A DNA stretch of 64,000 nt, taken from a bacterium. GTDB lineage: Bacteria > Patescibacteriota > Minisyncoccia > Phycocordibacterales > UBA918. The number at the start of each line of letters is the position of its first letter. Position 1 is the first letter of the stretch. This document shows, piece by piece, positions 10,476 to 37,936 of the stretch. Under the pieces are notes generated by a model. The model did no database searches. It had not been told where the DNA came from and saw nothing but the letters and a program-made list of their open reading frames with translations. The stretch is from NCBI GenBank assembly GCA_002710785.1, contig PAMC01000016.1, forward strand, positions 13,435-77,434. The letters run 5' to 3'. The position numbers were made by a program, and so were the translations under genes.

Positions 10476-10481
10476 CAGATA

Positions 10482-10487
10482 AATATA
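10482..10487 (-). promoter_or_regulatory. -10-like TATATT hexamer 6 nt upstream of the uvrB GTG start (possible leaderless mRNA)
   Basis: Minus strand reads cgtTATATTtatctgGTGaaattt; no purine-rich SD fits between hexamer and start. Confidence 0.25.
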
Positions 10488-21500: not shown

Positions 21501-24500
21501 AAGAAGTCTGCTTCTTCGTCACTTACACCACCATCAGCCACTGGAATATCAGTTGTATCACTCCCGTCAGTAAGAAACGTGGAGTCGTACATATCCCACG
21601 AGTCATTAGCAAAGGCATCGACGTTGGTCCAGCTGGCAACCACATCACATGTTGTCTCTCTGATGCCGTACTGCAACGTGTACTGGACAGGAACAGAAGA
21701 TGTGCCACCCTCGTTAGAGAGCCCGAGACGCAACCGGTACGGCTCGTTCTTGTCGATGTCGAGCACTGCCGTGTCCTCCGTCCCGCTGGTGGCTGAGCTA
21801 GCGGTTGTTTCAGTGCCGTTATCATTACGCCAGTGGTAATGCACCTGGGTAACAATTGCCCCTGAGACACTGGTGGTGCTCGCAATAGTAACCGCCGTAC
21901 TTGGCGCCACCGATGCGCCGCCCGAGACGGTAATTTGTGTATTCGGGTTAGTAATTTCAAGCTCAATTGTGTCCCCGTTTTGGGCAGTGTTCTCGACGTC
22001 GTACACAACATACACACATAGCGCACTGGTGGTCGAAATACCAACACTGTCAGAAAACGATGCGTTACCGTTGGCGGCGTCAAAGTTGGCGACGGTACTC
22101 CCAAATTGGGACTCTGTACCAGCGTACGATTCGCTGGCGCAGTTGTACGGTGCTGAGGTGTCGCTGTCGTAATACAGCTCAATATTAGCAACATCTGTGT
22201 CGGCATCAATGGTACCCATCTCAGCGATGGTAATGGCCGTGACATTGCGTGCGTCACTAGCCTCGGTGATAACAAACGCGCCACCGCCGTAGATGTCGAC
22301 ATCGCCAATTTCTGCATTCGCCACCTGGTTGCCAACACTGCTCACGTTAACATCAGCGGCAATGGACGCAGTTGGGTATTCAATATACTGACCGAGTACG
22401 GCACCCCCCTCACTAAGCCTAAAGCAGTAGGTGCTTCCCTGTGAAGCTGTGGTCGACGCAACGAGTGAAAACTCGTACTCCACAAATTCAGTACTGGTAA
22501 GCGTAATGCTGTTGGTTTGTGATGTGGTGTCGAGCAAGCCACCGTTTGGCGAGGCAAACGAAGAGTTTGGGTTGCTTACACCCCCACTGCTCGTCGCAAT
22601 GTCGGTGCTGTCGGTGCCGTTGGTGATAAAACTGGAATTGTGCATGTTCCACGCATCGTCTGCGTCGTCGACCCCCGTCCAGGTGCCCACATCTCCACAG
22701 GTCGGGTTAGCTACTCCAAATTCGAGCTCAAAGTTTGTACTTAGCGTTGACGTTGAGCCTTCGTTGGAAAGGGCGATACGCAGACGTCGAGGTTGATTGC
22801 GTGGTAAATCAACCAGGCCGGTATTTTCCACACCAGCGGTAACAGAGGTAGCACCACTCTCGTTACCGTTGTCATTGCGCCAATGGTACCCCGTTTGTTG
22901 AAGATCGGGCCGCACCACGGTGGTGGCACCTGAAAGAGCGATGGCAGTGTTAGGTTTTGGGGTGATGCCGCCGGTTACCGAGACGTCTGTACTCGAATTG
23001 CTAATTTCTACATCAATCGTTTGTCCGTCGTCAGCCGATCCGAGGACGTCAAGCAGTACGTACACACAGAGCGTACTTGAGGTGGCAACCGAAACCGAAT
23101 CCACGAACGTTGCAATACCATTAGCGCCGTTAAAACCGTTGGTGTCAGTCGCGCCGTACTGCAACTCTGAACCGTCATAGCTCTCACTCGAGCAGTCGTA
23201 GGGAGCTGACGTATCTAATTCGTAGAGCAGGCGAATATTGGCAATGTCGTTAGCACCATCAACCGAACCGTCTTCAGTGATCGTAATACCCGTAACCGAG
23301 CGACTGCTGTCGAACTCTGTAAACACGAAGGTGCCGCCGAGGTAGTTGCTCGTAGTGCTTCCTCGCACCTCGGAAATTTGCGAACCAATACTCGACACCG
23401 TCAGTGGTGGCGTCGGGTCGAGCATGGTTTCACCACGAATATCAAGCGGTGTGAGCGCATGCCAGCTCACGTAGAGCCGTTGGTCGGAGCGGTAATTAGT
23501 GTCGACGCCGTAGAAGTCGTCAGTGGCGACATTAAGTGGACCATTGTCGATACTCCAGCTGCCCATGGCACTGGTTGAACTCGCCCAGTACACGTTAGCG
23601 GAGGTGCTGCTGCCAATTGTGCCTCGCGCACCGTACGCAACGTAGACATCATCGGTGTTAGCGTCAACCGCCATGGCCAAATCGGTAATACCTCGACTAT
23701 CGTTGGTGAGGATGTCAGCCGTTTTACTCCAGCTGCCACCACTGTACTTGGCGGTACGAATGTCGTGGTCGGCGGCCGTAAAATTATTGTTGTCTGCAGT
23801 ATACGCCAGGTGAACATCGCCAGTGTCCGGGTCGACCACTGCAGTCATGCCTACTTCGTACGTCGCGCTCTCAACCGCCGACGCATCAATCGCGGTCCAC
23901 GATGCGTCCCAACTCGTGTTGTCCCACACCTTCGAGCGAACATCATTAGCGTTACGGTCGCGGTCAATGACCATGATGTCGCCACCTAACAGTGGCACAA
24001 GAATCTGCATGTCGCCTGTAACTACATCAAGCGGGTTAGTACCAGTTTCTGACCACGATGTCGACAGGTCACAGTTGCTGCTACACTCAACAATAAAACC
24101 ATCCGTGTTATCGGTTAAGCCTGTGTAAATGGTGCCGTCTGTCCCCTTCGTAAGTGCGGGTTTTGCTGCGCCGTGGCTAATAGTTGGTGTCTGGCCAGTG
24201 GTGGCATCGGTACCTGAGAGGCCGACAAGCAAAGTGTCGTTGGTGGTATCGAGGCGGTTGTAGCGGATATCTTCTCGCGCACTGTTTTGGTGCATGGTGA
24301 CAATGTGGATGTAGTCACCAGTGTCCCCCGGCGTCCACTGATCGTACCAGACTGAGATCGAGCCACAGTCGCTAAAGTTATTAAACTGCGTCGCACCGCC
24401 CCAAGTAGCACCGCCATCAGTGGTTTTTGAGTAGTAACAGGTACCGTTGGTGATGGTATAAAACCGGTAGCCAGTTTGATCATCGGTAAAGACAGTAGAA

Positions 24501-24697
24501 AAACCAGATTTTTGGTGCCGAGTCGGTTGGTTATCTGCGTTGTTGGCAATCACAGCTTCGGCAGCAATTATAGGCCGAAAGGAGAAGAAAAGCAGCCCAA
24601 ACAGAAGTACCATCAAGCACGAAAACCAAATCCGTCTCTCAGTCTGAGTCCATATGCAACAAAACTCACGGACGTTGCCGAATATCGTTAAATTCAC
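18536..24697 (-). CDS. giant secreted protein (2053 aa): N-terminal Asp-box (BNR) beta-propeller, four copies of an uncharacterised about 200-aa module, conserved C-terminal domain
   Basis: Signal anchor; Asp-box SKTTDGGATWGG and S-x-SWS repeats; modules starting YHWRNDNG (x2), YRWYDN, DWRWYDDE, each with R-L-R, L-Q-Y-G/S, C-F-R and Y-P motifs; C-terminus ...YSSDIVYLVTPEF. Confidence 0.8.
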   Translation of the reverse strand: MNLTIFGNVREFCCIWTQTERRIWFSCLMVLLFGLLFFSFRPIIAAEAVIANNADNQPTRHQKSGFSTVFTDDQTGYRFYTITNGTCYYSKTTDGGATWGGATQFNNFSDCGSISVWYDQWTPGDTGDYIHIVTMHQNSAREDIRYNRLDTTNDTLLVGLSGTDATTGQTPTISHGAAKPALTKGTDGTIYTGLTDNTDGFIVECSSNCDLSTSWSETGTNPLDVVTGDMQILVPLLGGDIMVIDRDRNANDVRSKVWDNTSWDASWTAIDASAVESATYEVGMTAVVDPDTGDVHLAYTADNNNFTAADHDIRTAKYSGGSWSKTADILTNDSRGITDLAMAVDANTDDVYVAYGARGTIGSSTSANVYWASSTSAMGSWSIDNGPLNVATDDFYGVDTNYRSDQRLYVSWHALTPLDIRGETMLDPTPPLTVSSIGSQISEVRGSTTSNYLGGTFVFTEFDSSRSVTGITITEDGSVDGANDIANIRLLYELDTSAPYDCSSESYDGSELQYGATDTNGFNGANGIATFVDSVSVATSSTLCVYVLLDVLGSADDGQTIDVEISNSSTDVSVTGGITPKPNTAIALSGATTVVRPDLQQTGYHWRNDNGNESGATSVTAGVENTGLVDLPRNQPRRLRIALSNEGSTSTLSTNFELEFGVANPTCGDVGTWTGVDDADDAWNMHNSSFITNGTDSTDIATSSGGVSNPNSSFASPNGGLLDTTSQTNSITLTSTEFVEYEFSLVASTTASQGSTYCFRLSEGGAVLGQYIEYPTASIAADVNVSSVGNQVANAEIGDVDIYGGGAFVITEASDARNVTAITIAEMGTIDADTDVANIELYYDSDTSAPYNCASESYAGTESQFGSTVANFDAANGNASFSDSVGISTTSALCVYVVYDVENTAQNGDTIELEITNPNTQITVSGGASVAPSTAVTIASTTSVSGAIVTQVHYHWRNDNGTETTASSATSGTEDTAVLDIDKNEPYRLRLGLSNEGGTSSVPVQYTLQYGIRETTCDVVASWTNVDAFANDSWDMYDSTFLTDGSDTTDIPVADGGVSDEEADFLTSNGGIAETDASTPTTTLSSTNYVDFEFSITTTANTPFETDFCFRVVENGTPLVAYDVYPEISTKTNRDYKTQRGTNVISGSSLTLTAGVDYDAPASTSVAFVRITNFHHTGAGRDTGAGNQNPDDVSAYITSSNLPTSFTITRDTDSVNNTFVAWEIIEFIGDPGTDNEMVVRDVGTISMSSGQTYATSSAINPITDDGDIAVFITGARMTNASRGNFSNNRATAAWSSSTNQVVLTRSATNTSADFSYAVVEFLGGNWKVQRVEHEFSSAGVTETESITPVSAVTKAFLETQKRHTFTSQQASYGVQAWLSSMGVVSFSLDSGADMAQTHTAVVWVIENIQNGAGEMTVFPASGLFTGGTAPATTSVSFDAVGVNDINNAAIFGNTTIDRATNNFPEIMAGLYLTSSTTFEIWRSDTQGTLSYRAMVVEWPAADVSIRQNDYRWYDNTNALTPTDAWPPGAGSIGENSPITVLDTPVGDGDVIRLRTSLLITNGTLPATLQSLKLQYGLQETTCSAISSWNDVGAPGSGSIWRGFDNGAVADNAAIGTNPPTGGQTLLAVSDRSGRYVEGGSATANPYSVNADEDVEYDWVIQHNGATQRSDYCFRVVQDDGTQLAEYLTYPSLRTEGYSPVQSDWRWYDDETSLTPSTDLAAENVAPVEVQKGNTVKLRVIVDELNNLEQANARFRLQYSDSAGFATVNDVVNSGSCGGSDVWCYDDGAGVDNAIIDEKVLTNTDICNAGVGVGCGTHNESDLTLTGYTHTALSATEFEFTIQYQNISGYYGQVWYFRVYDVANGDVVPLDSGATYPSLVGESGSLAFTVNGLPAGTSTEGVVTTASTTATTIPFGSLVTDSDAIAGQRLSIDTNAVSGYRTQLYTRQQLQNSDSDTIADIAGTNSAPSGWSAGCSGLTSCFGYHAGDDTLSGNTSRFALDDTYAAASTTPEEIMYSAVPATESEDIIYRIVVTGTQPPGDYSSDIVYLVTPEF

Positions 24698-24715: not shown

Positions 24716-26296
24716 TTACTGCTCAGTACTGGTGGCTGCCGGTGGAATAACCAGGTCAAATTCGGGGTCTGGGAGCACGTCTGGAGCCGGTGACTTCTCG
24801 GGTACGGTAGAGGTTGCCAAATCGAGGATGAGCGGGTTATCGGAAGCTTCGGCTGGCGTACTGGTTGCTGCTGGCGCAGGCTCAGTTTGCGGAGCACTAC
24901 TCGTGGCAGTAGTGGCACTGGAACCAGTGCCAGACATCAGTGGCTCCGACACAATCTCATCTTCTTCAAGAGTAGGTTTGTACTGCACAAGCGCTCGGAC
25001 CTCGTTTGTTGGATCACTCGAAGGTAGCTCATCAGGGAGTTCTGCTGGCAAAGCCTCGATTGGTACTAACTCTTGGGTAATCGGGTCAAACCCGCGAATG
25101 ACTCGGTCCCCTTCTGGGGTAAGGCCTTCGTACACGAGTAGCATGCGAGCATTTTGCACTGATGCACCCACTGATGCGTCGTCAATTCGAGACTCTTCTT
25201 CGTTTTTAATATCGTACACAACAACTTCCTGGTTACCGTCGTACATTCGCTTCCAGACCACGAAACCTTCACTGACTGACGGTGCAACGTCCGGCATTGT
25301 GTTGTCGGTCAGCTGCCGCACTGATTCGCCGTCGTGCAACATAATTTCCCAGCTCTCGCTTCCCCACTGCTGCCACACAATAATGTCTCCCTGTCTAGTC
25401 GGTTCCATGTTGTTACTGCGTCCGGCAGTGAGTTGGGTTTCTGTTTCCTCATCAAAGTCGTAAACCATGATCTGGTACCGTCCAGAAATGAGCGTATGCC
25501 AGACGAGGGTGTCAGATTGCGCGTCGTAATACGGGGCAGCATCATCCCGTTTATTGTTGGTGATTTGGTACGTTTTTCCCTCCATCACCGCAAAAATCTC
25601 GCGATCCCCATCGCCATCAAGCGCTACATAGAAGCTGTCGGCTGGCGGCGGCTCTGGAGCACTTGATCCACAGTAGTACGAGCCGTCAGCTACCCGTACG
25701 CAGTCATCTTTAGAAAATTGATAGTAGTTTTGATTGGTGGCACCAGTGTGGCTAAGCGGGACAACTGGTGACGTAGTTGCGGCTACATCAGAAGCTGCCT
25801 CCGCTGCAGAGTCAGCCAGTAAGTTGTCCTCATCTGCGCTATCAGTGACGCTTTCCTCGTCGAGGACCGATGTGCTGGTTGCCTGCACAGGTGGCGTCGA
25901 TGAGGCCGAGGAGGTGTCATCAAGGTCCGGGTCGGGAACCACTTCATCACTATCCGGAGGGGCAGCTGGTGTACCTGATGGCTGATCTTCCTCGATTTCA
26001 GGTTCGGGCTGCACTACTTCGCTCGCTATTTCTTCTGGTGGTGCAATGTCTTCCGCCGATATACTAGACCCGGTCTCCACTCCGCCGCCCGTATCAGCTG
26101 GTTGCGTTTCCTCCACTTCTGCTACCGTGTCAGTCTCAATTTCTGTCGGTACCTCGTTGGCAAAAACCAAACTAACCGGCTGCGAGAACATGACGAGCAA
26201 CACCCACGTCGAAAACCACCGCACAAGACGGTTACCAAATACAAACCGGTAGAGCCACACCGACTGAATGCTATTGGTACTTATGGGCTTTGACAT
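24716..26296 (-). CDS. secreted beta-propeller-repeat protein with acidic low-complexity N- and C-terminal regions
   Basis: Signal anchor; repeats (GDIIVWQQWGSESWEIMLHDGESVRQLTDN; GFVVWKRMYDGNQEVVVYDIKNEEESRIDD; TLVWHTLISGRYQIMVYDFDEETETQLTAG) resembling TolB/PD40-type blades; long E/D/P/T-rich tracts. Confidence 0.55.
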   Translation of the reverse strand: MSKPISTNSIQSVWLYRFVFGNRLVRWFSTWVLLVMFSQPVSLVFANEVPTEIETDTVAEVEETQPADTGGGVETGSSISAEDIAPPEEIASEVVQPEPEIEEDQPSGTPAAPPDSDEVVPDPDLDDTSSASSTPPVQATSTSVLDEESVTDSADEDNLLADSAAEAASDVAATTSPVVPLSHTGATNQNYYQFSKDDCVRVADGSYYCGSSAPEPPPADSFYVALDGDGDREIFAVMEGKTYQITNNKRDDAAPYYDAQSDTLVWHTLISGRYQIMVYDFDEETETQLTAGRSNNMEPTRQGDIIVWQQWGSESWEIMLHDGESVRQLTDNTMPDVAPSVSEGFVVWKRMYDGNQEVVVYDIKNEEESRIDDASVGASVQNARMLLVYEGLTPEGDRVIRGFDPITQELVPIEALPAELPDELPSSDPTNEVRALVQYKPTLEEDEIVSEPLMSGTGSSATTATSSAPQTEPAPAATSTPAEASDNPLILDLATSTVPEKSPAPDVLPDPEFDLVIPPAATSTEQ

Positions 26297-26521: not shown

Positions 26522-27250
26522 TTAGTTAAAGAAGGAGTCGGCCAAAATAATAGCAAAATCAGTGAAATTCATGCGCCTGTCCTGGTTAAAATCGTACAGC
26601 CACTGCCTGTTGCGCCAGGCGCGCATAAATTCGTTAACATCGGCCAAACTGACGTTACCGTCGCCATCGATATCCGTAATAAACGAAATGGCCACATCAC
26701 CACTCAGGATGCCGTCTTCACTCACTCCAACCACCAAAATTGGTGTATCGGCAATCTCATCCACTTCACTACCGTTCCCATCACCAGCCAAAAGCGTCGT
26801 CTCACTGACGCTAAATTCAGCGCGTCCACCTGTATTGGCTTTGAAGTTAATTCGCGCAACTTGATGTTCACCCACAAACCCCTTGCGGAAGGTGCCGCCA
26901 CGCAGAATCACCTGCGACCCCTCAACGTACGGATCTTGTGTCCAGAGTGAGATTACTGACTCACCAGTGTCTATGCCGGTTACCTCAACCTGATTGCTGG
27001 GAAACGAGACGGCAATATCCACTGCATTTACCGAGCGGTGTGCACCAGCATAGACGTAGACTGAAAAAGAATCCCCGGCAGCAACACTGCGCTCTGGTGC
27101 CTCCAGCCTAATGTAAGAAGTTGTGTCAGTTAGGAGGACTGTGGCAACAAGCGAAAGGGCTGCGAGTGTGGCAAACGAAAACGTGTGTCGAATGGTACGC
27201 ACTCGGGCCTGTTTACGAAAACGGTGGAGTAAGCGACGGAGAAACATCAT
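26522..27250 (-). CDS. cohesin-like domain + dockerin protein
   Basis: N-terminal signal; cohesin-like block SFSVYVYAGAHRSVNAVDIAVSFPSNQVEVTGIDTGESVISLW...HQVARINFKANTGGRAEFSVSETTLLAGDGNGSEV; C-terminal dockerin F-hand repeats DIDGDGNVSLADVNEFMRAW and DFNQDRRMNFTDFAIILA. Confidence 0.6.
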   Translation of the reverse strand: MMFLRRLLHRFRKQARVRTIRHTFSFATLAALSLVATVLLTDTTSYIRLEAPERSVAAGDSFSVYVYAGAHRSVNAVDIAVSFPSNQVEVTGIDTGESVISLWTQDPYVEGSQVILRGGTFRKGFVGEHQVARINFKANTGGRAEFSVSETTLLAGDGNGSEVDEIADTPILVVGVSEDGILSGDVAISFITDIDGDGNVSLADVNEFMRAWRNRQWLYDFNQDRRMNFTDFAIILADSFFN

Positions 27251-27900
27251 ATGGCATATAACGACTGACGGATGTCGGCGATGGTAGTATTCAGTTCCGC
27301 TACTCGGTTTGAGACCTGCTGCGCTCTGACGAGCTTAGCTTCTAGCACATCCGGATCAGGTACCCCGGTTTGCAAAATAACGATAATTTCACCTTGAATG
27401 TCGACTTGCTCGCTCAGCAAGTCCCCCCGCTCCCGTTCAAAATCAACTAACGACTGCCAGGTGAGCACCGGATACTCACTGACAGCAGCCGGCTCAAGTG
27501 CCGTGAGGAGCGATACGTACTCGTTGTACACCTCAAACTCCCGCTCAAGGCGTGCCACTATAACTGCCTTACGTTCTGCGAAAAACCCTCCGCAAGCGTC
27601 GAATAAACGACTGATGTCGTCGAGCTCAGTAGCGGTAAGATTGGCTAAATTGTTCAAAAGTTGCTCAAACTGCCGTCTGCTGTCGGGTGAGCAGTCGCGA
27701 ATAATGACTTCTGCGACAGCATCAGCTCTATTTTGGGCTGTCAATTCGGCGAGGGTAGTGAGTCGTTGTTCTTGTTTGGCAATTGCGCGTTCCAGGGTCA
27801 AAACTGTCGTACGCTGTGACTGCTCAATGTAGAGAGAAGCAAACGCAAAACAAAGTGCCAAACCAACACCAAGCGTGATGACAATATGATGATTTCGCAT
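27247..27900 (-). CDS. hypothetical N-terminally anchored coiled-coil protein
   Basis: 217 aa; TM IVITLGVGLALCFAFASLYI then heptad-like Q/E/L/R-rich sequence; ATGA-type overlap with the downstream gene. Confidence 0.45.
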   Translation of the reverse strand: MRNHHIVITLGVGLALCFAFASLYIEQSQRTTVLTLERAIAKQEQRLTTLAELTAQNRADAVAEVIIRDCSPDSRRQFEQLLNNLANLTATELDDISRLFDACGGFFAERKAVIVARLEREFEVYNEYVSLLTALEPAAVSEYPVLTWQSLVDFERERGDLLSEQVDIQGEIIVILQTGVPDPDVLEAKLVRAQQVSNRVAELNTTIADIRQSLYAI

Positions 27901-27906
27901 AGTGTA

Positions 27907-29667
27907 TTAGCTAACTATATCATCAACCTCGGAAATTTCCTTGCGGATTGTTTGCTCAGCTGCGTCGATGTGTGCGAGTGTATCATCAACAAGTTGTTGT
28001 TCAGCTTTAGTGAGTTTTTTAGTTTTGCGCGAGCCGCGGAGCGTCTGACTTTCGGCAGTAACTGTCTCTCGCAGGGTAGTAAACTGGCGTTCGAGCACAG
28101 TCAATGCCTCTCCCGTTTCGGCAACCACAACCCGTCTGATTCGGCGGATGCGGGCTCGGCCATAGAGAAGTAGCAAAACGAGGAGAAGTGTCAGTGCCAC
28201 GAGTGGTACGAGAACCGACATGATGCTTACCGCCCACTGACCAAAGGCGATGTAGCCTGGTTGAGCCACTAAGAAGCGTACCGTCTCACTCGTTGCGCTC
28301 TGTGAACCATGCGAATCAATCGCATAGGCGGAGAGTTCGTACACCCCTTCCGACAGACGTCCGTCCGGCACAATTCTGAACGACCCGTCCTCCTCAGCAC
28401 CCAAAACGTACTCGAGCGGCACATCCCCCTGGTCACCGCGACCAACTGGTGCAATCGTCGCGTATACAGTTGCCCCTGGCCGCGTAGAGCCAAAGAATAC
28501 CGGCACGACACTGGCTCCCACCTCTGCGGGATACTCGGTCCAAACCGGAGCAGCAAACGCCTCGATGGTAAAGCTAATAGTGGCAACCCGGCTATTACCT
28601 GCCGCATCGAAAGCTTCAATTACAAAACTCTGCTGTCCAGGTTCAAGCTCAGTCAGGGTGAGTGTGCTGCTGCCGGTTTCGTCAACAAATTCGTACGGTT
28701 CTCCACCGTTGTGCTGGATACGATAACGCGTTACTGGGGAGGTCGCGTCACTACTACTAAAGCGAAGTTCTTGCGTAGGGCTAGAAACATCGTAGGCGTC
28801 GCTACGAGTGATAGAAAACTCGGTTGGCGCCTCAGTATCAACCGCGAGACGGTAGTGCGCCACTCGACCCCACCCTTCAGTGTTGCGGAACTGGAGGTGG
28901 AAGTACTGCACACCCTCATCTAGCTCACTCAGCGTAATCGAGTTAATCGGCGGCTCGTATACTTTCGTTGGGATGGTGCCGCTATTAGTATCGAGTAGCG
29001 TGCGAACTGCCGTCACATCACCCGGAATTGACCACGACAGTTTTGCTTCAGTGGCTTGTGACCATCCATCTGCCTGGTGGGTCTCGCTCGAAATATTTGG
29101 TGTACCAGGAGTATTCGCTGGAGCGATGTACTCAATGGTCTCTGGCTCGGGCTGCACGTCGGCTGCGGCAATGGTGTACGTACCGCCATTAAGACTCTGT
29201 ACTACATTTGTACCCCGTCCATCGGCTGCTAAAACTGACCCGTTGCTGAAGGTAACCCGTGCTGGGCCTGCACCTTTAGAACGCCAGGTAATCGTGAGTA
29301 CCGTACCAGCACTCCCGGTGTAGCCAGCTGGAGAGCCGCCGCCAAAATTAATAGTACCGGCTGCGTTTGAGTACGATGGCTCGACGGCCCACAGTGAGAA
29401 GGTGTTCCCTTTGCTGATGCCGAGCACTGAGAGCTGACTCGGGTTGAAACTAAGTGTAGCTTCGGCGGCGTTAATGGCAGTTCCGCGTGTATTTACGACT
29501 ACCCGCGTCGTAAATGTCTGTCCTGCGGTGTACACACCGGTGCTCGGTGAGAGCGAAAGAGTTGCGGCTGACACGGTAGTAGCGCCGAGTAGGAAGAGAG
29601 CACACGCAAATACAAAGCTCAGTAGGTAGGTATGGGCAGTGGCGCTAGTTCGTATCATTGTCTTCAA
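27907..29667 (-). CDS. cohesin-like domain surface protein with Ig/FN3-like domains, TM anchor and cytoplasmic coiled-coil tail
   Basis: Signal peptide; cohesin-like block ATLSLSPSTGVYTAGQTFTTRVVVNTRGTAINAAEATLSFNPSQLSVLGISKGNTFSLWAVEP...ARVTFSNGSVLAADGRG; TM AVSIMSVLVPLVALTLLLVLLLLYG; about 85-aa charged coiled-coil C-terminus. Confidence 0.6.
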   Translation of the reverse strand: MKTMIRTSATAHTYLLSFVFACALFLLGATTVSAATLSLSPSTGVYTAGQTFTTRVVVNTRGTAINAAEATLSFNPSQLSVLGISKGNTFSLWAVEPSYSNAAGTINFGGGSPAGYTGSAGTVLTITWRSKGAGPARVTFSNGSVLAADGRGTNVVQSLNGGTYTIAAADVQPEPETIEYIAPANTPGTPNISSETHQADGWSQATEAKLSWSIPGDVTAVRTLLDTNSGTIPTKVYEPPINSITLSELDEGVQYFHLQFRNTEGWGRVAHYRLAVDTEAPTEFSITRSDAYDVSSPTQELRFSSSDATSPVTRYRIQHNGGEPYEFVDETGSSTLTLTELEPGQQSFVIEAFDAAGNSRVATISFTIEAFAAPVWTEYPAEVGASVVPVFFGSTRPGATVYATIAPVGRGDQGDVPLEYVLGAEEDGSFRIVPDGRLSEGVYELSAYAIDSHGSQSATSETVRFLVAQPGYIAFGQWAVSIMSVLVPLVALTLLLVLLLLYGRARIRRIRRVVVAETGEALTVLERQFTTLRETVTAESQTLRGSRKTKKLTKAEQQLVDDTLAHIDAAEQTIRKEISEVDDIVS

Positions 29668-30781
29668 TTACGTTACCGTCTTCATCAACTTCGACCTCCA
29701 CCCACTCTTCGACATACTCATACTCGTCTTCTTCGGCAGCGGCGGAGGCTTTGGCCGCCTTACGTTCGCGACGACGTGCGAGCAGATTCGGCACCAGTTT
29801 GTGACCAACCAGAGCGCCGAGTAGCACCAAGAGCAACGCGCCGACGCCAATAATGATGTACTCAAGCAGTGTCGTCATAGAAATGCCGCGGAGTGGCTCT
29901 TCTGGTACCAGCGTGGCAATGTACTCGTTACCTGCCTTATCTACGGCTTTTACACGAATTGTGCTGTTGAGTGACTGATCAGACAGTACGTACGGGCTAC
30001 GAACGCGTTTCCACGGCGCGTCAACTGCACCCCACTCGAAGAGGCCAGCTTCTTCAAACGGCTCTTCAATAACTTCGTAGTAAGCTATGCCGGTTTGTTT
30101 GTCGGTAGTGTTAAAGATGATGTAGTACTTGTTGTCAAACACTTTGGTGTCGCGCTGTAGGGTAATACTAAACTCTTCTGGGATACGAGTATCGCCCTGC
30201 ACGAGCTCTACCCAATCGTTGCGCACCACTTGACCTGGCCGGTCACCAACCACAAGTGTTGCTGTGTTCGTAATGAGATCCGCTAAGCTACCTCGTCCGT
30301 CATTGAGGTACACTGTTGTTTGATCAGAAAAACGAATCGTACTGGTTGGACTCTGATCGCCGAATCCAACCCGGAGACCGGGTACTTGGAACACAATCTT
30401 GAGCACCTCATTGGTAAGGCGTGGATCTCCCTCAATGCGGCCGCAGTATCCGTTGGGGATACCGCCGGCAAAGGTAATGCGGTTGTTCTCGCGATCTATG
30501 GTGGGCTCTTCTACCCACAGCGGCAAAATTGACTGGCCACGGCTAATGTCAACCGGTTGCACATTTGGGTCGTACTCGATGACCGCGTCAACGACGTTAA
30601 TACACTCCCCGGGTGAAGGATTAACCCGTACCGCCATCACAATGGTGTCGCCCGGGTTAATCGTGCCTGTATTTGGATCTAAGTAGAGAACTGCAGCTGC
30701 AGCGGTCCCTGGCAACACCAACTGACTAGAGAGACCGAGTGTCCCCACCACCATAAAGAGCTGCCGCATAAAATGCATCAT
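29645..30781 (-). CDS. cohesin-like domain surface protein with C-terminal TM anchor and acidic tail
   Basis: Signal peptide; cohesin-like block TIVMAVRVNPSPGECINVVDAVIEYDPNVQPVDISRGQSILPLWVEEP...STIRFSDQTTVYLNDGRG; TM IIIGVGALLLVLLGALVG; tail ARRRERKAAKASAAAEEDEYEYVEEWVEVEVDEDG. Confidence 0.6.
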   Translation of the reverse strand: MMHFMRQLFMVVGTLGLSSQLVLPGTAAAAVLYLDPNTGTINPGDTIVMAVRVNPSPGECINVVDAVIEYDPNVQPVDISRGQSILPLWVEEPTIDRENNRITFAGGIPNGYCGRIEGDPRLTNEVLKIVFQVPGLRVGFGDQSPTSTIRFSDQTTVYLNDGRGSLADLITNTATLVVGDRPGQVVRNDWVELVQGDTRIPEEFSITLQRDTKVFDNKYYIIFNTTDKQTGIAYYEVIEEPFEEAGLFEWGAVDAPWKRVRSPYVLSDQSLNSTIRVKAVDKAGNEYIATLVPEEPLRGISMTTLLEYIIIGVGALLLVLLGALVGHKLVPNLLARRRERKAAKASAAAEEDEYEYVEEWVEVEVDEDGNVIEDNDTN

Positions 30782-30896: not shown

Positions 30897-32042
30897 TCAG
30901 AATATTGGTGTGGCAACGTAGCGCAGTGTGGTTGAGTAGGCATCTGAGGCTTCTTGCAAAGCCGAGATTTCTACTCGGTACCCCACCCGCGTGGTACCCT
31001 CACCGGTTCCTGTCCCATCAGTAGGACCGGTATGACTCATCACTACAACAGGTGTAGTGCTCGCCGCTACCCACGAGTTGCTCGTAAACTCTGCGCTGCG
31101 TGTTGTTGTCGCATCATCAGAGGTTAGACCCCAGTGCCCAAAGGTGGTTGGATCACCTGGTTGCGCCGCTGGAGAGAACCAACTTGTAGGTGTGGTGGTG
31201 TAATCACCATCGCGGAACGAGTCAATGATAGCGCCGCCTGAAGACATAAATTCTCCATCTTGCGCCACGGTGACTACGTACCCTTGCGATGCGTTAGTAA
31301 CCACCCGCAATTCTTGAGCCGTCGTGCTCGCGACCCCTTGCGTCAGATTTCCGAACGCAAGCGTAGTTGGAGTCGACGAACCGGTGGTGGTGACACCGTT
31401 AACAGTCTGACCGCCGCCCACCGCGAGTACCTGAAAGGTAAACGTGGTGTCGACAGTCGCCGTTACGGTAACCGTGTCAATAATGACAACCTCGGTCTCA
31501 CCAGTATCAGTTTGTGTTCCCGCAATGCCAATCTCGTAGCTACCCGTTACGCTCGGGTTCACGAGCTGATTGGAGCCAGACCCGCCAAAGCTGGCATGGT
31601 CGCCAATCTCAATTGTGGTTGAACCGTTAGCTGCGATTGAAGCGCCGTCGCCAGGACAAAACTCAATCGTCAGTACTGCTCCACTAAAGCTGATACCGAT
31701 TTCATCAGAGCCGACGGTGCAGTCTGTGGAAACTGACAAGTCAGTCGCGCCATCCTGCACGTCGATGTCTGTAGCAGCGATACTAGACGTACCGGTGAAC
31801 GGACCATCCGAGAAATCGATGGTGATAGTTTCACCATTGCTGATACCCGTAGGGGTCGTAAAGACAATGGTGTGGTTCGAGGCAGAACCAGGGCTCGAAT
31901 CGCTCAACGTGTCAGACACGTTGGCAATACTTGCAGCGCTTACCAGCCAGCTGGAGTGAAAGTTGGTGCTCCAAAATAGGAGCCCGACACTCACAAACGC
32001 TGCAACAGCTTTGAGTAGCCGGAATGATTTCATTCCAGACAT
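30897..32042 (-). CDS. secreted Thr/Gly/Ser-rich beta protein sharing the C-terminal domain of the 2053-aa giant
   Basis: Signal peptide MSGMKSFRLLKAVAAFVSVGLLFWS; C-terminal about 150 aa align to the 18536..24697 C-terminus (FGHWGLTSDD.../FGYHAGDDTLSG; WVAASTTP/YAAASTTP; ...LRYVATPIF/...IVYLVTPEF). Confidence 0.65.
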   Translation of the reverse strand: MSGMKSFRLLKAVAAFVSVGLLFWSTNFHSSWLVSAASIANVSDTLSDSSPGSASNHTIVFTTPTGISNGETITIDFSDGPFTGTSSIAATDIDVQDGATDLSVSTDCTVGSDEIGISFSGAVLTIEFCPGDGASIAANGSTTIEIGDHASFGGSGSNQLVNPSVTGSYEIGIAGTQTDTGETEVVIIDTVTVTATVDTTFTFQVLAVGGGQTVNGVTTTGSSTPTTLAFGNLTQGVASTTAQELRVVTNASQGYVVTVAQDGEFMSSGGAIIDSFRDGDYTTTPTSWFSPAAQPGDPTTFGHWGLTSDDATTTRSAEFTSNSWVAASTTPVVVMSHTGPTDGTGTGEGTTRVGYRVEISALQEASDAYSTTLRYVATPIF

Positions 32043-32174
32043 ACTCTACGTTGTTAAGCTGCAGCACCCATCACGAGGATAGCTGAGTCGACTCCAGACT
32101 CCACACCGAAGTCGCACTCACGATGCTGTAGCGTACAAATCGTCTCACCGGGCTGTACGGTGATTGGGCAAGCC

Positions 32175-32534: not shown

Positions 32535-33668
32535 TTACCCAGTCCAGTTAAACAGCAAAATCGAAAAGTCCTCAATACCAACGTTGCCGTTACCATTTAT
32601 GTCAGCTGGAGGGTCAGAGTCGCCTCCGGTAGTCTGCCACCAAAAAATCATGATCGAGAAGTCAATTAAGTTTACAAAACCGTCACGGTTAAGGTCGGTT
32701 GGTGTGGTAGCGCGGCCATCAACGCCTACAAATAAGGTGAGGCTGCTACTAAAGCTACTCTCAGTCACGAGGACTCCGCTACCTTGGATAAAGCGAGTGC
32801 GAAGTAAATACTCAGCGGGCGCGAGGCCGGCAGTATTAAATTGGTACTCCCAGACTCCATTTGCGCCTGATGTTACCTCGGCTATCTGCTCGTCGTCCTG
32901 ATAAATCTGTACCGTCTTATCTGGTGCAGTTTGACCACGTAATAGAATGACATCTCCAGGATCAATCGTAACGTCATCAGCAGAAATGGTTGGTGGTAGT
33001 AGCACACCTCGGACAGTTGTGACCGCACCCTGCGTCACATCAAAGGTTGAATTGTACGTAATCGAACGTGTACCAAAGGTGTCTTCAGACCACAAGCCGA
33101 GCGAAGCGGTACCTGGCTCAGCGTCGACTGCAAACTCAAATTCGCCGTCACTATCAGCCCGAATAGTCCCAACCTGCTCGGCATCCAGTAGCACCTGAAC
33201 TGTCTCATTGGGGTACGCGATGCCTTCAACACGCACAAGCGTATCGCCAAGCTCTTCATCACTACCGCCAGAATTTCCACTTCCGCCACCTGAGCTGCCG
33301 CCGCCGCCAAAACCAGCTGGTTCTACCTGGCAGTCTGCCGAACAAAAGTCATCATCGGTATTGTTGCCGTCGTCACATTCTTCGTCAAACAAGGTCTGTA
33401 AAATGCCGTCCCCGCAGTACGGACCAAACTGACAGTCAACGTCACACTGACGACCAGCAATGGTGGTGCTATACGCACCTGTCTCACCGGGCACGTCACA
33501 CGCCTCGTTAAAATTTACGAGCGCGTCGCCGCAAATACTAATACCCACAGTAGTAGTCGCAACCGTTGTGGTGAGCGTTGAAGTGGGTGTCGTAGTAGCA
33601 AACCCCACATACGGCAGCAAGAGTAAAAGGCTGAGAACACCAGCTCTTAGACGCGATAGCATGCACAT
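32535..33668 (-). CDS. secreted protein with Myxococcus-type Cys-rich repeats, Gly-rich linker and C-terminal dockerin
   Basis: Signal peptide; repeats CGDALVNFNEACDVPGE..., CGDGILQTLFDEECDDGNNTDDDFCSADCQ; GGGGSSGGGSGNSGGSD linker; dockerin F-hand repeats DLNRDGFVNLIDFSIMIFWW and DINGNGNVGIEDFSILLFNW. Confidence 0.65.
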   Translation of the reverse strand: MCMLSRLRAGVLSLLLLLPYVGFATTTPTSTLTTTVATTTVGISICGDALVNFNEACDVPGETGAYSTTIAGRQCDVDCQFGPYCGDGILQTLFDEECDDGNNTDDDFCSADCQVEPAGFGGGGSSGGGSGNSGGSDEELGDTLVRVEGIAYPNETVQVLLDAEQVGTIRADSDGEFEFAVDAEPGTASLGLWSEDTFGTRSITYNSTFDVTQGAVTTVRGVLLPPTISADDVTIDPGDVILLRGQTAPDKTVQIYQDDEQIAEVTSGANGVWEYQFNTAGLAPAEYLLRTRFIQGSGVLVTESSFSSSLTLFVGVDGRATTPTDLNRDGFVNLIDFSIMIFWWQTTGGDSDPPADINGNGNVGIEDFSILLFNWTG

Positions 33669-33682
33669 ACCTCTTTGCAGTA

Positions 33683-34606
33683 CTAGCTACGGCGACGATA
33701 CACCAGTAGACCGATAATGATTAAGACGGTGAGAATCGGCAAAATAATTGAGACCTTGTGCGGCAGTGACAAGCCAGCAAAACCATACCCGGCCGTCTGC
33801 AACGTGCCGTACGGCAGGATATTTAGCGTCAGCTCACCCTCCTGTTTAATGTCATCTTGATTATAAATGGAGTACCGTGCCAGGTACGAACCAGCTGGCA
33901 AGCGCGTTGGTATCTCGGCCACCACGTCTTCAGTTGCAAATGGCTGCACTCTGACAATTCGGTTGCGGTGGTGAGTCTCCTCCAGAAGCGTCTGTCCGGT
34001 TGAATCGTAGATCTTGAAAACCACATCGCTCGGCGCTACGTCAACGTTGCCGGTATTCTCGATACGCATGCCAAAGTTAATCTTAGCTGGGAAGTAGAGC
34101 CAGCCAACTTTGTGTCCCTCGTTAAAGTCGGGCAATTCGATCTTGCGTACACGAAAATCAAATATCTCTCTATCAATGATCGTTAGGTCGATGTCGACTT
34201 GTGCACCTAAAGAAATGTTAACGGCGCCAGCAGTTTCAGAGCCCGGTGGTGGTGCAGTCTTAATGCGGATCTTGCCAGAGTAACGTCGGAATTCTGCGTC
34301 GTCAGGGACCGTCACCCGAACGGTCACCGGCACTTTTTTGGCGCCAACTGGCATAGCAATGAGATCACCCTCGAGCACCTCTACCCAGTCAGCAATCGTG
34401 GGGGCATCAACCGTGATGCGGGCGTTGAGTGGGGTTGATGGGTCGCTGCGGACCATGAGAATCTGCTGTTCGTATACTGAGTTACGCGTCAAGCTCGTAT
34501 TACGCACGTACGGTGGTGTAATACCAAAACCAGCGTAGGAAAGATTGACCCCCACCACGTAGGCAATAAAGAACACCGAGAAAAATACGTAGAGCTTCTT
34601 TATCAT
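33683..34606 (-). CDS. DUF916/DUF3324-like cell-surface protein, C-terminal TM anchor
   Basis: Signal peptide MIKKLYVFFSVFFIAYVVGVNLSYA (start set to Met17); GFGITPPYVRNTSLTRNSVYEQQILMVRSDPSTPLNARITVD; second beta domain; TM ILPILTVLIIIGLLVYRRRS. Confidence 0.55.
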   Translation of the reverse strand: MIKKLYVFFSVFFIAYVVGVNLSYAGFGITPPYVRNTSLTRNSVYEQQILMVRSDPSTPLNARITVDAPTIADWVEVLEGDLIAMPVGAKKVPVTVRVTVPDDAEFRRYSGKIRIKTAPPPGSETAGAVNISLGAQVDIDLTIIDREIFDFRVRKIELPDFNEGHKVGWLYFPAKINFGMRIENTGNVDVAPSDVVFKIYDSTGQTLLEETHHRNRIVRVQPFATEDVVAEIPTRLPAGSYLARYSIYNQDDIKQEGELTLNILPYGTLQTAGYGFAGLSLPHKVSIILPILTVLIIIGLLVYRRRS

Positions 34607-34711
34607 GTCACAATCACTTCTTCCCATTATCACCTCAACTGGGCGATAAAACAACAGCCACCGTCTGGATAACGGTGGCTATCTGGTTAGCTATTTCAGC
34701 AAGTTTTAGGC

Positions 34712-36701: not shown

Positions 36702-37910
36702 CTACTCGTAGCGGATGGCATCGAGTGGGTTTAGGGATGCCGCCCGACGGGCCGGGAAAATACCAGTCAAATACCCGACCGCAGCAGAGAAAAGCGCAAT
36801 AAACGTAAGAAAAGTGAGCGGAAACGAGAATAATTGCACTGCTTGACCGCCAAACTGACTGGCTACGAAGTTGAGTAAGACATTAATAGTCGCTCCAAAT
36901 ATAACTCCCATGACAATTCCCGACAAACCACCCAGAAAACCAACGATGATTGATTCAGACACAAAGAGCCACTTAATGTCGCTCGGTGACGCGCCAATAG
37001 TGCGCATAATACCAATCTCTTTGGTTCTCTCCAGAAGCGTCACGGTCATCGTGTTAAACATACCAATCGCCGACACGACGAGCGCAATACCACCAAAGAT
37101 TGCTAAAGTGACCTGGATACCCTGGAAGATCTTACTGGCTTGGTCGACAGTTTTTGAGAGCGCCGTTACCCGGTACCCATCTTCGATCAGTTCAGCTTCA
37201 ACCGGCTCAAGAAATTCGTTGGTGCTGACACGCACCTGGGCTCGCTCGTACTCATCGATACCTACGTAATTGCGTAGTTCTGGCATCATCATAAGGGCGT
37301 TAAGCACACCTTCCTCTTTGGTAATACCGCGTACGAGGTAATCTTTTTCGATGGGAATTTCTAGAATTTCGTCAGTGCCGTCGTCGGCCGGCACAAGCAA
37401 GCGGAACGTTACCTGCTCACCAACAAAGGTTTCAGCCTCTTCAATACCAAATAATTTGAGGACCGCTGGTGAAAGCATGACCGAGCTACCATCGCCAGCA
37501 TCATCGTCAGTGAATACCTGACCGGCAGAGGCAGTAATACCGGCGTAGCGCAGGTATGGCGGCTCTGCTCCCTGCAAGAAAACGTTGCCGGTCAATCCTT
37601 TGTAGGTAATGAGGGCTGGAAAGCGAGCTAACGGCGCAGCGTCGAGGACGTTGTCTTTTTCTTCAAACTCACGAATGGTCTCATCTGTAATCTGCAAATT
37701 TTGTGCGCCAGTAGCAGACACACCAAGCGAGAGAAGGGTTTCACCAAATACAATCTGCTCAAGAATGATCTGCTGCAACCCGAATCCTAGACCTACTAAA
37801 ACCACCACCGCACCAGTGCCCACGCCCATGCCAAGAATAGTCAGCCAAGTACGCATCGGGTTTGTTTTAAAGGCTCGGGTTGAGAGTTGGGCTAGATCTT
37901 GTGCTCGCAT
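36702..37910 (-). CDS. ABC transporter permease, FtsX/MacB-type (4 TM with large extracytoplasmic domain between TM1 and TM2)
   Basis: TM1 WLTILGMGVGTGAVVVLVGLGFGL, about 200-aa periplasmic domain, three C-terminal TMs with FtsX-like IGIMRTIGASPSDIKWLFVSESIIVG. Confidence 0.85.
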   Translation of the reverse strand: MRAQDLAQLSTRAFKTNPMRTWLTILGMGVGTGAVVVLVGLGFGLQQIILEQIVFGETLLSLGVSATGAQNLQITDETIREFEEKDNVLDAAPLARFPALITYKGLTGNVFLQGAEPPYLRYAGITASAGQVFTDDDAGDGSSVMLSPAVLKLFGIEEAETFVGEQVTFRLLVPADDGTDEILEIPIEKDYLVRGITKEEGVLNALMMMPELRNYVGIDEYERAQVRVSTNEFLEPVEAELIEDGYRVTALSKTVDQASKIFQGIQVTLAIFGGIALVVSAIGMFNTMTVTLLERTKEIGIMRTIGASPSDIKWLFVSESIIVGFLGGLSGIVMGVIFGATINVLLNFVASQFGGQAVQLFSFPLTFLTFIALFSAAVGYLTGIFPARRAASLNPLDAIRYE

Positions 37911-37936
37911 ACTACGTACTCAGTATAACAACGGGG

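Follow-up and report, generated by a model that had tools for sequence, protein, structure and literature searches.

Gene content of the locus

The window analyzed here is a 64,000-nucleotide stretch of DNA from an uncultured, ultra-small marine member of the Patescibacteria (CPR). On its minus strand lie three genes encoding cohesin-bearing proteins of 242, 586, and 378 amino acids (aa), among further genes for surface proteins and an ABC transporter (Table 1). When module HMMs were run against all open reading frames of the window, exactly three cohesins and two dockerins were found. The three cohesin genes, one of which also encodes a dockerin, and the gene of the second dockerin are part of a 14-gene cluster that has the same order in 84 Patescibacteria loci. 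Its other members include a Pam-pilin-like gene, the gene of the 2053-aa protein, those of a MacB-type ABC transporter, and an ORF of 7718 aa. In our search of the literature on cohesins and dockerins from Patescibacteria, Parcubacteria, or CPR, we came across no account of such a cluster.

Genes of the cluster are tightly packed or overlapping. The 217-aa gene, for instance, located between the 242-aa and 586-aa genes and conserved in 73 loci, shares an ATGA with the 242-aa gene, in which its stop codon and the start codon of the latter overlap. The 586-aa gene probably has its true start at the ATG at position 29658. Because it contains two invariant Cys residues (70 and 103), the helical domain of the 217-aa protein is probably extracytoplasmic; in a topology analysis using signal peptides, TM segments, and charge flanks, invariant Cys pairs lay in extracytoplasmic parts. 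The ATPase of the transporter has a C-terminal extension of roughly 200 aa, the first 50 residues of which are almost invariant.

Table 1. Features of the locus, with window coordinates (nt), strand, and residue ranges
Feature	nt	Strand	aa	Description
331-aa protein	17538–18533	−		paralog of 323-aa protein; signal peptide, two beta domains, TM 275–293
2053-aa protein	18536–24697	−		surface protein
242-aa protein	26522–27250	−		NCBI MAZ30309.1, annotated "hypothetical protein"
242-aa anchor			23–41	hydrophobic, after basic N terminus
242-aa cohesin	26717–27121	−	44–178	followed by short linker
242-aa dockerin	26528–26683	−	190–241	
217-aa protein	27247–27900	−		bitopic; TM aa 6–24, then helical domain
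586-aa protein	27907–29667	−		signal peptide (..VSA/AT)
586-aa cohesin	29173–29568	−	34–165	
586-aa Ig/Fn3-like domains				three (fn3 292–358, Big_13 389–461)
586-aa TM	28168–28224	−	482–500	by hydropathy
586-aa cytoplasmic tail	27910–28167	−	501–586	conserved, heptad-periodic
378-aa protein	29645–30781	−		paralog of 586-aa protein; signal peptide (..AAA/AV)
378-aa cohesin	30242–30697	−	29–180	invariant Cys 60 and 113
378-aa Ig-like domain			190–295	one
378-aa TM	29780–29860	−	308–334	by hydropathy
381-aa protein	30897–32042	−		secreted, two domains; C-terminal domain aa 225–381
Conserved block	32043–32059	−		..AACAACGUAGAGU; directly before AUG of pilin-like gene
Leader RNA hairpin	32125–32165	−		covarying; 5′ leader of pilin-like gene; degenerate loop GGUGAGAC in window copy
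377-aa protein	32535–33668	−		secreted, signal peptide
377-aa head				Cys-rich DUF4215/myxo_disulf_rpt, 8 invariant Cys; then Gly/Ser linker
377-aa Ig-like domains				two, before C-terminal dockerin
377-aa dockerin	32538–32717	−	318–377	Dockerin_1, 27.0 bits (passes)
323-aa protein	33683–34654	−		signal peptide, two beta domains, C-terminal TM
MacB/LolCDE-type ABC transporter	36702–39262	−		permease 402 aa (MacB_PCD + FtsX), ATPase 441 aa

Three cohesins, two of them on membrane-anchored stalks

A sequence-only reading of this DNA had proposed a cohesin-like beta domain in each of the three proteins, and homology and predicted fold bear this out. That reading had let its proposal depend on Pfam thresholds, which hold in part. 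Against the Pfam Cohesin model (PF00963; cut-off, 24.1 bits), the 586-aa protein passes with 31.9 bits, whereas the 242-aa protein (20.9 bits, E 4e-4) and the 378-aa protein (22.2 bits, E 2e-4, with only the N-terminal half of the model matched) stay below the gathering score, as does the 242-aa dockerin. PF00963 was matched at E ≤ 0.01 by 9/36 orthologs in the 242-aa family and 5/36 in the 378-aa family. The identity of these two cohesins and of the 242-aa dockerin thus stands on orthogonal evidence only.

For the cohesins, this evidence comes from profile and fold comparisons. In hhalign comparisons of the ortholog families, the N-terminal domains proved homologous for 586 versus 378 aa (99.6% probability, E 6e-25), 586 versus 242 aa (98.6%, E 1e-15), and 242 versus 378 aa (97.2%, E 3e-11). 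Single-sequence and profile searches of PDB sequences gave weak matches, to cohesins at E 0.03 to 0.15, so a fold comparison was needed. The AF2 model of the 242-aa protein, predicted from an alignment built from protein-search matches, has a pLDDT of about 90 in the beta domain, and its top 41 Foldseek matches in the PDB are all cohesins (best, 2xdh; E 1e-8, TM 0.79). The fold is the nine-stranded beta-sandwich (jelly-roll) of cohesins, and all three proteins carry true cohesin folds.

Three motifs, S-I/V-x-x-L-W, G-G-x-P-x-G-Y/F, and D-G-x-G-T, are common to the three families and lie largely in loops. They may thus fall outside the canonical 8-3-6-5 face that binds dockerins, a point against dockerin docking. 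The cohesins might instead be adhesive tips that bind a protein or glycan ligand on a host cell or in the environment, and not the dockerins of their own locus. Host-binding tips usually vary, however, and of the three modules the 586-aa cohesin varies least (mean p-distance, 0.35); given also the persistent adjacency of dockerin genes, we consider this explanation improbable.

Signal peptides and C-terminal TM segments found by hydropathy agree with the earlier proposal that the 586-aa and 378-aa proteins are anchored in the membrane by their C termini. Both are type-I membrane proteins with the cohesin at the membrane-distal N terminus, carried by a stalk of three Ig-like domains in the 586-aa protein and of a single one in the 378-aa protein. 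The AF2 model of the 378-aa protein places a helix at residues 302 to 351. Both proteins had also been credited with charged cytoplasmic tails. The 586-aa tail is conserved. Conservation does not extend to the acidic tail of the 378-aa protein, whose orthologs have a short RRRR stop-transfer segment followed by a variable stretch.

One of the two tails had been described as an 85-aa coiled coil; in the 586-aa protein we find an 86-aa tail with heptad periodicity. Across the family, whose members are 33 to 66% identical to the 586-aa protein, hydrophobic positions recur with a dominant period of 3.5 residues, and the best 28-residue window fills 7/8 a/d core positions, which 1.75% of shuffles reach. 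The motifs SRKTKKLTKAE and, at the C terminus, KEI.DVDDIV are conserved even in Uhrbacteria-level relatives. Conserved motifs together with heptad periodicity make an intracellular partner or oligomerization plausible. It is also conceivable that the 586-aa protein is a transmembrane receptor that signals the binding of an outside ligand or dockerin through this tail; motif conservation from Paceibacteria to Uhrbacteria-level relatives, the heptad periodicity, and, in the single locus L001, downstream genes for a histidine kinase and a response regulator would fit. Yet the two-component genes lie outside the conserved order, Pfam and NCBIfam scans recognized no signaling domain in the tail, and such a tail can equally serve oligomerization, all of which makes a receptor quite unlikely in our view.

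Two dockerins

The C-terminal dockerin postulated for the 242-aa protein is supported by both calcium loops, by the helices, and by Pfam matches of its orthologs. The protein itself scores 17.9 bits (E 0.004) against Pfam Dockerin_1 (PF00404; cut-off, 22.9 bits), while 32/36 orthologs match the model at E ≤ 0.01 (best, 2e-7) and a profile search matched the PDB dockerin 2y3n_B at E 0.004. The calcium-binding Asp/Asn pattern, suggested earlier as a check, is complete in both EF-hand-type loops, D193-x-D-x-D-G-x-V-x-x-x-D204 and D220-x-N-x-D224-x-x-M-x-x-x-D231, and D193, G198, D204, D220, D224, and D231 are invariant among 53 sequences. In the AF2 model the segment DIDGDGNVSLAD is followed by a helix at 202 to 214 and DFNQDRRMNFTD by a helix at 229 to 241, giving the tandem arrangement of two segments, each an EF-hand-like calcium loop with D/N at positions 1, 3, 5, and 12 and then a helix.

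The N terminus of the 242-aa protein combines a flank charge of +8 with the hydrophobic segment and has no AxA site; on this sequence evidence, the protein is probably membrane-anchored via its own N terminus. A Tat signal was considered there and rejected, as the RR is not conserved.

The second dockerin, at the C terminus of the 377-aa protein, is encoded three genes away and scores better than the first. Its calcium loops read DLNRDGFVNLID and DINGNGNVGIED, and homology between the 242-aa and 377-aa proteins runs through the dockerin only (hhalign, 92.6%). The 377-aa gene stays beside cohesin genes even in distant CPR lineages. Loci L078, L083 (Uhrbacteria), L084, and L086 each have a 377-like dockerin gene immediately upstream of one to four TM-anchored cohesin genes and contain neither the pilin-like nor the 242-aa gene. 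When the divergence of the dockerins was compared with that of each cohesin across 39 genomes (mirror tree with partial correlation), no pairing stood out clearly; partial r did not exceed 0.2.

With a cohesin and a dockerin in one small polypeptide, the 242-aa protein could polymerize head to tail, each dockerin binding the cohesin of the next copy to form a chain or sheet on the membrane, as the sequence-only reading had imagined. Among the 150 best cluster representatives listed for the family profile, most are relatives of about 250 aa that span both modules in a single stretch, and some of these stand alone in unrelated gene contexts, so they may act without other cohesins. In adaptors of the ScaC type, with one cohesin and one dockerin, the two modules differ in specificity, which counts against self-polymerization, and the apparent N-terminal anchor limits the geometry of a chain. 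We therefore regard such a polymer as very doubtful.

Possible relatives of the Pam pilus beside the cohesins

The Pam pilus is a CPR-specific surface system of "Ca. Mycosynbacter amalyticus," with membrane-anchored PapD/FimC-like chaperones PamC and PamD and with PamR, an RbmA-like anchor; reported Pam homologs come mainly from Saccharimonadia and Microgenomatia and not from Paceibacteria, and the report makes no mention of cohesins, dockerins, or an ABC transporter (Troman et al., bioRxiv 10.64898/2026.03.03.709456). In the 381-aa protein, the C-terminal domain matches the NCBIfam model of the Pam pilin C terminus (NF058581, CPR_Pam_pilin_C) over the model's whole length (positions 3 to 148 of 148; E 5e-7), albeit at 29.9 bits against a cut-off of 55. 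The model was matched at E ≤ 0.01 by 25/31 orthologs of the 381-aa protein. As in Pam pilins, the best-conserved stretches are a mid-protein strand (residues 191 to 205) and the C-terminal strand. A PDB profile search with the 381-aa family found nothing. Given the sub-threshold match, the 381-aa protein appears by sequence to be a remote relative of the CPR Pam pilin.

The last 170 aa of the 2053-aa protein (nt 18539 to 19048) are homologous to this C-terminal domain by hhalign and hmmsearch, and the 2053-aa protein had no direct match to NF058581. The 323-aa and 331-aa proteins, alike over their full length (hhalign, 96.7%), recall PamC and PamD as two paralogous proteins with a signal peptide, two beta domains, and a TM segment. 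By architecture alone they are candidate membrane-anchored chaperones; PDB profile searches and Pfam scans of each family member of the 323-aa protein returned no PapD, PDB, or Pfam chaperone match, nor any other informative one. Unlike the Pam operon, the cluster here also contains cohesins, dockerins, a MacB-type transporter, and giant ORFs, and its three cohesin genes are without a described Pam counterpart.

PamR has been proposed to hold or terminate a donor-strand-exchange fiber (bioRxiv 10.64898/2026.03.03.709456). The anchored cohesin-fold proteins could likewise form a pilus base that does so by beta-strand complementation, the dockerins being merely calcium-stabilized modules. They share with PamR an architecture of beta domains and a C-terminal TM helix, the 586-aa and 378-aa proteins carry Fn3/Ig-like domains, and the cohesin genes adjoin the pilin-like gene in 84 loci. 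Their folds, however, match cohesins and not RbmA/FnIII, so that the three proteins are not PamR-like by fold. The mature proteins start directly at cohesin strand 1, which leaves no free N-terminal donor strand, and distant lineages keep the cohesin genes with the dockerin gene and not with the pilin-like gene. On balance, a pilus base of this kind seems unlikely.

A proposed docking set on the cell surface

The reading we favor, with moderate confidence, is that these cohesins and dockerins form a docking set, non-cellulosomal and anchored in the membrane, on the surface of a Paceibacteria-type (CPR/Patescibacteria) cell, with the three genes as its socket side. Binding between the modules is suggested indirectly, by the conserved adjacency of their genes. 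The 377-aa protein would be a cargo that plugs, in a Ca2+-dependent manner, into an anchored cohesin, and the 242-aa protein would act as a monovalent, ScaC-like adaptor, with its dockerin seated in an anchored cohesin and its own cohesin offering a further socket. The coiled-coil-like tail of the 586-aa protein may oligomerize the anchor or tie it to a cytoplasmic partner. On the cell surface, the complex would have as its neighbor a Pam-like pilus built by donor-strand exchange, whose putative parts are the 381-aa pilin-like protein, the 2053-aa protein with the same C-terminal domain, and the two anchored two-domain proteins. This suggests a plug-and-socket way of building an attachment surface.

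Cellulosomes, such as those of Clostridium thermocellum (CipA/SdbA/OlpB) and Ruminococcus flavefaciens (ScaA/B/C/E), combine carbohydrate-active enzymes that bear dockerins with a scaffoldin that bears a CBM, and they are anchored through SLH domains or sortase. The window holds no such set: Pfam and NCBIfam scans of all its large ORFs detected neither a sortase nor any GH, CBM, or SLH domain. The proteins here are anchored by transmembrane helices, their putative cargo is a Cys-rich/Ig protein, they belong to an ultra-small CPR bacterium, and their genes are embedded in a pilus-like/adhesin cluster. Non-cellulosomal cohesins and dockerins were surveyed by Peer et al. (2009; as cited in PMC10066038). 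Cohesins of this kind include that of Archaeoglobus fulgidus (2xdh) and those of the Clostridium perfringens toxin complex (2vo8, 2jh2, and 2w1n). Those cohesins are soluble or enzyme-borne, whereas two, and probably all three, of the paralogs described here are anchored in the membrane, and all three are encoded in a 14-gene cluster that a whole bacterial class conserves.

CPR/Patescibacteria account for much of bacterial diversity, carry tiny genomes, and presumably live attached to other cells; to our knowledge, their surface molecules are almost unknown. It is in such streamlined genomes that TM cohesins, dockerins, a Pam-related pilin, giant proteins, and an ABC transporter of the mechanotransmitting type are kept together, in 84 loci. 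If the predicted pairs bind, they would be a natural cellulosome-style modular assembly, anchored by membrane helices, that serves cell-surface architecture and not polysaccharide breakdown, and the small soluble modules would be concrete parts for studying attachment in uncultured CPR bacteria.

A broader reading, which we offer only tentatively and think rather doubtful as a whole, is that Paceibacteria use cellulosome-style plugs and sockets to build the surface by which they attach to hosts or particles, and that a calcium-dependent platform of cohesins, adaptor, and cargo forms the base on which a Pam-type pilus and giant-adhesin apparatus stands. The platform would be coupled to the cytoplasm via the 586-aa tail, possibly with the MacB-type transporter and its ATPase extension, and pilin expression would be set by a previously undescribed leader hairpin. 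The parts of such a platform would be TM cohesin anchors of two stalk lengths, a membrane-tethered 242-aa adaptor, and a Cys-rich dockerin cargo.

Rfam gave no match to the window or to a canonical leader, and RNAalifold predicted no structure from the long, poorly alignable leader alignment; the covarying hairpin in the leader of the pilin-like gene (Table 1) was derived from an anchored alignment.

Gene order and conservation

Nearly all genes in the window, which comes from a Patescibacteria (CPR) genome, lie on the minus strand. ORFs were present at all three positions where the sequence-only reading had placed cohesin-like genes (encoding proteins of 242, 586, and 378 aa), and a fourth gene, for a 217-aa protein, lies between them. 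The stop codon of the 217-aa gene and the first codon of the 242-aa gene overlap (ATGA), and the two genes are translationally coupled. The proteins studied here are identical to NCBI MAZ30309.1 to MAZ30314.1 from a Tara Oceans mesopelagic MAG, all annotated as "hypothetical protein"; some orthologs have already been labeled "cohesin domain-containing protein" by automated pipelines. An identical order of 14 genes, which are tightly packed or overlapping, recurred at 84 loci of different Patescibacteria genomes, and the named relatives were Nomurabacteria, Kaiserbacteria, Pacebacteria, and Paceibacteria. A terminator-like hairpin with a 13-bp stem (6 G-C pairs), the strongest in the region, may divide the cluster into separate transcription units.

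Features of the conserved cluster (genes numbered in cluster order) and its surroundings; positions are those of the window unless the locus of a relative (L-number) is named
Feature	Position	Strand	Remark
7718-aa ORF	40800-63956	-	23 kb; directly upstream of cluster
1, Fn3 protein (503 aa)
2 and 3, ABC ATPase (441 aa) and MacB/FtsX permease (402 aa)	36702-39262	-	MacB/LolCDE-type ABC transporter
4, 631-aa protein
Terminator-like hairpin	34653-34683	-	between genes 4 and 5
5, 323-aa protein	33683-34654	-
6, 377-aa dockerin protein	32535-33668	-
Leader of pilin-like gene	32043-32172	-	hairpin copy 32125-32165
7, 381-aa pilin-like protein	30897-32042	-
8, 378-aa cohesin protein	29645-30781	-
9, 586-aa cohesin protein	27907-29667	-	TTG start; likelier ATG at 29658
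10, 217-aa protein	27247-27900	-
11, 242-aa cohesin-dockerin protein	26522-27250	-
12, 526-aa protein	24716-26296	-
13, 2053-aa surface protein	18536-24697	-
14, 331-aa protein	17538-18533	-
581-aa protein	15917-17662	-
430-aa surface protein	7021-8313	-	between uvrA (4326-7004) and uvrB (8439-10532)
Canonical leader hairpins, examples	L077:506-546, L079:7479-7519, L063:4293-4333
348-aa dockerin and 948-aa cohesin genes	L086:8945-12847

Three cohesins and two dockerins

The Pfam Cohesin model matched all three proteins, but only the 586-aa protein passed its gathering score of 24.1 bits (31.9 bits); the 242-aa (20.9 bits) and 378-aa (22.2 bits, over half of the model only) proteins fell below it. 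Sequence searches of the PDB gave nothing significant, with cohesins among the top weak matches, and ortholog alignments were therefore built. The 586-aa family comprises at least 877 clusters at 90% identity, of which the best 120 are nearly all 550 to 600 aa long and 51 to 71% identical; the other two families are conserved to a similar degree. In profile-profile comparisons, the N-terminal domains of the three proteins were mutually homologous (98.6, 99.6, and 97.2%; E values of 1e-15, 6e-25, and 3e-11). The 586- and 378-aa proteins are paralogs, because their cohesins are homologous and are followed by a common Ig-like domain.

AlphaFold2 modeled the beta domain of the 242-aa protein with a pLDDT of about 90 and the 378-aa protein with a mean pLDDT of 86. 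Searched against the PDB with Foldseek, the first 41 and 43 matches of these models, respectively, were all cohesins (lowest E values, 1e-8 and 3e-9; TM to target, 0.73 to 0.81). The best or joint-best match was 2xdh, a non-cellulosomal Archaeoglobus fulgidus cohesin. The cohesin assignment proposed from sequence is thus borne out: it is secure for the 242- and 378-aa proteins on the strength of predicted models, and for the 586-aa protein by Pfam score and homology.

The dockerin that had been read at the C terminus of the 242-aa protein scored 17.9 bits, under the Pfam Dockerin_1 cutoff of 22.9 bits, but other evidence agreed with it. Dockerin_1 matched 32 of 36 orthologs at an E value of ≤0.01 (best, 2e-7), the family profile matched the solved dockerin 2y3n_B (E value of 0.004), and the region was modeled with two helices, as expected. 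The Ca-binding pattern held as well, both loops being canonical, with D193, G198, D204, D220, D224, and D231 invariant in 53 sequences. A second dockerin, missed by that reading, is carried by the 377-aa protein and passes the cutoff (27.0 bits). This protein also has a signal peptide, two Ig-like domains, and a Cys-rich head (DUF4215/myxo_disulf_rpt) in which eight cysteines are invariant. Module HMMs run against all window ORFs found exactly three cohesins and two dockerins, which by fold and motif are members of the respective superfamilies.

Membrane topology

Both the 586-aa and the 378-aa protein start with a signal peptide that has an A-x-A-type site, and each has a single strong hydrophobic segment near the C terminus (residues 482 to 500 and 308 to 334, respectively), followed by an Arg-rich stop-transfer sequence. 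The segment of the 378-aa protein was modeled as a long helix, and the C-terminal anchoring claimed for both proteins is upheld. Two invariant cysteines in the 378-aa cohesin fit an external location of this domain.

Charged cytoplasmic tails had also been proposed for both anchors. The 586-aa protein has a conserved tail of 86 aa, with SRKTKKLTKAE and a C-terminal KEI.DVDDIV, and 586-like proteins from distant lineages, one of them from an Uhrbacteria genome, end in similar tails. The 378-aa protein has an acidic tail of 45 aa that only its closest relative shares; those of other orthologs are short and variable. Family-wide hydrophobic occupancy of the 586-aa tail has a dominant, heptad-type period of 3.5 residues, and a basic motif separates two heptad-rich stretches, so that the suggested coiled coil is supported by sequence periodicity but not proven.

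The N terminus of the 242-aa protein consists of 22 residues with a net charge of +8 and a conserved T-V-R-Y-A-F-P motif, followed by a 19-residue hydrophobic segment; no A-x-A site was found in this region. Because of these features, the protein is most likely type-II anchored, with cohesin and dockerin outside. The bitopic 217-aa protein, kept in 73 loci, has an N-terminal TM segment and a helical domain that contains two invariant cysteines; its sole match, a weak one, was FtsL-like and covered the TM/coiled-coil part.

Linkage in relatives and a possible docking set

In four more distant loci (L078, L083 from the Uhrbacteria genome, L084, and L086, the last retrieved with the profile of the 242-aa family), the pilin-like, 217-aa, and 242-aa genes are absent from the neighborhood, and one to four cohesin genes are still preceded directly by a 377-like dockerin gene. 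A C-terminal TM helix is present in most of these cohesin proteins, and the tail motif recurs in some. Because this adjacency outlasts the other genes, the dockerin-cargo and anchored-cohesin pair is the evolutionarily tightest unit, and this conservation is the best available indirect evidence that the two would work together. A mirror-tree attempt at pairing dockerins with cohesins yielded no partner assignment. L086 offers a further case of the dockerin-then-cohesin gene pair, in an unrelated CPR context beside Mur ligase genes: the gene for a 348-aa Dockerin_1 protein precedes, by 10 nt, that for a 948-aa protein whose cohesin is internal.

We give about an even chance to a non-cellulosomal, membrane-anchored cohesin-dockerin docking set. 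In this arrangement, whose modules, topology signals, paralogy, and genetic linkage we observe and whose every binding step we infer, the 586- and 378-aa transmembrane anchors would each hold up a cohesin, on stalks of unequal length, and the secreted, Cys-rich 377-aa protein would dock via its C-terminal dockerin. Alternatively, the cohesins could be adhesive tips for foreign ligands. For the docking set, the conserved 586-aa tail would oligomerize the anchor or bind a cytoplasmic partner; a rival reading of the system is that of a receptor.

The 242-aa protein could serve the docking set as a membrane-tethered adaptor, with an architecture comparable to that of ScaC, a monovalent scaffoldin whose cohesins were among the fold matches. 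Its family profile retrieved 1791 cluster representatives at an E value of ≤1e-10; most of the best 150 of these one-cohesin-one-dockerin representatives were 220 to 275 aa long with both modules covered, and some lay in unrelated contexts. Carrying both modules, the protein might instead self-polymerize, as had been suggested from the sequence.

A cellulosome was considered and rejected: its enzymes, CBM, SLH domain, and sortase were not found for this system. Non-cellulosomal cohesins and dockerins are known in all three domains of life, according to Peer et al. (2009) as cited in PMC10066038. A literature search returned no paper on this cluster, on transmembrane-anchored cohesin paralogs, or on their link to a Pam-like pilin.

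Pam-pilin-like neighbors

The C-terminal 157 residues of the secreted 381-aa protein matched NCBIfam NF058581 (CPR_Pam_pilin_C) over the whole model (E value of 5e-7; 29.9 bits against a cutoff of 55), which makes it by sequence a remote, sub-threshold relative of this domain; 25 of 31 orthologs also matched. The description of the Pam pilus, from "Candidatus Mycosynbacter amalyticus", dates from June 2026; each pilin consists of a beta-sandwich at the N terminus, a donated linker strand, and a truncated Ig-like domain at the C terminus (bioRxiv 10.64898/2026.03.03.709456). Because homologs have so far been reported mainly in Saccharimonadia and Microgenomatia (same preprint), the 381-aa protein may extend the system to Paceibacteria.

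Several features are consistent with the Pam system. Within the 381-aa family, conservation is highest in a mid-protein strand (residues 191 to 205) and in the C-terminal strand. The 2053-aa protein, which shows long internal repeats and for which neither Pfam nor NCBIfam gave a match, ends in 170 residues that are homologous to the 381-aa C-terminal domain (hhalign, 99.4%; hmmsearch E value of 9e-23); it may be a tip adhesin or a giant subunit of the pilus. The paralogous 323- and 331-aa proteins each comprise a signal peptide, two beta domains, and a TM helix at the C terminus. As read from sequence, this architecture resembles that of both the anchored Pam chaperones PamC/PamD and the Firmicutes WxL-interacting proteins; the chaperone reading found no sequence support. 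The neighboring 581-aa protein is weakly similar to them (E value of 0.0035) and has a weak WxLIP_PGBD match. In contrast to this cluster, which has all three, the Pam paper makes no mention of a cohesin, dockerin, or ABC transporter. The docking complex would stand beside a Pam-like fiber and giant surface proteins; alternatively, the cohesin proteins could themselves be the base or terminator of the pilus.

Leader hairpin and other neighboring genes

In 50 of 52 loci, the pilin-like gene is preceded, 78 to 118 nt before its AUG, by a covarying hairpin whose stem has 9 to 14 bp and whose apical loop, GUGGAGA(C), is invariant. Of the cells in the anchored alignment, 73.8% were paired versus 52.1% in shuffles (0 of 500 reached the observed value), and the covariation score was 0.585 versus 0.219 in shuffles (0 of 500) and 0.13 to 0.23 in slid controls. 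The loop 8-mer is position-specific, with 51 of its 81 plus-strand occurrences in 1.4 Mb found here, and Rfam had no match. A promoter-like block lies upstream, and a conserved UAAUACAACGUAGAG block lies immediately 5' of the AUG. The window's own hairpin copy is degenerate (GGUGAGAC). The GGA in the loop recalls CsrA-type sites, by analogy.

Among the other genes, the 7718-aa ORF has two DUF2341 domains, a pentaxin/LamG-like stretch, and Ig_Rha78A_N; the module HMMs found no cohesin, dockerin, or pilin-C module in it. The ABC ATPase has a C-terminal extension of ~200 aa with no family match, whose first 50 residues are almost invariant across orthologs. The 526-aa protein combines a long, acidic, low-complexity N-terminal half with TolB/beta-propeller-like repeats (TIGR04275; E value of 2.5e-11, under the cutoff). 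Outside the cluster, the 430-aa protein encoded between uvrA and uvrB is an Ig-like surface protein (Big_6, Big_13, and Ca_tandemer-like).
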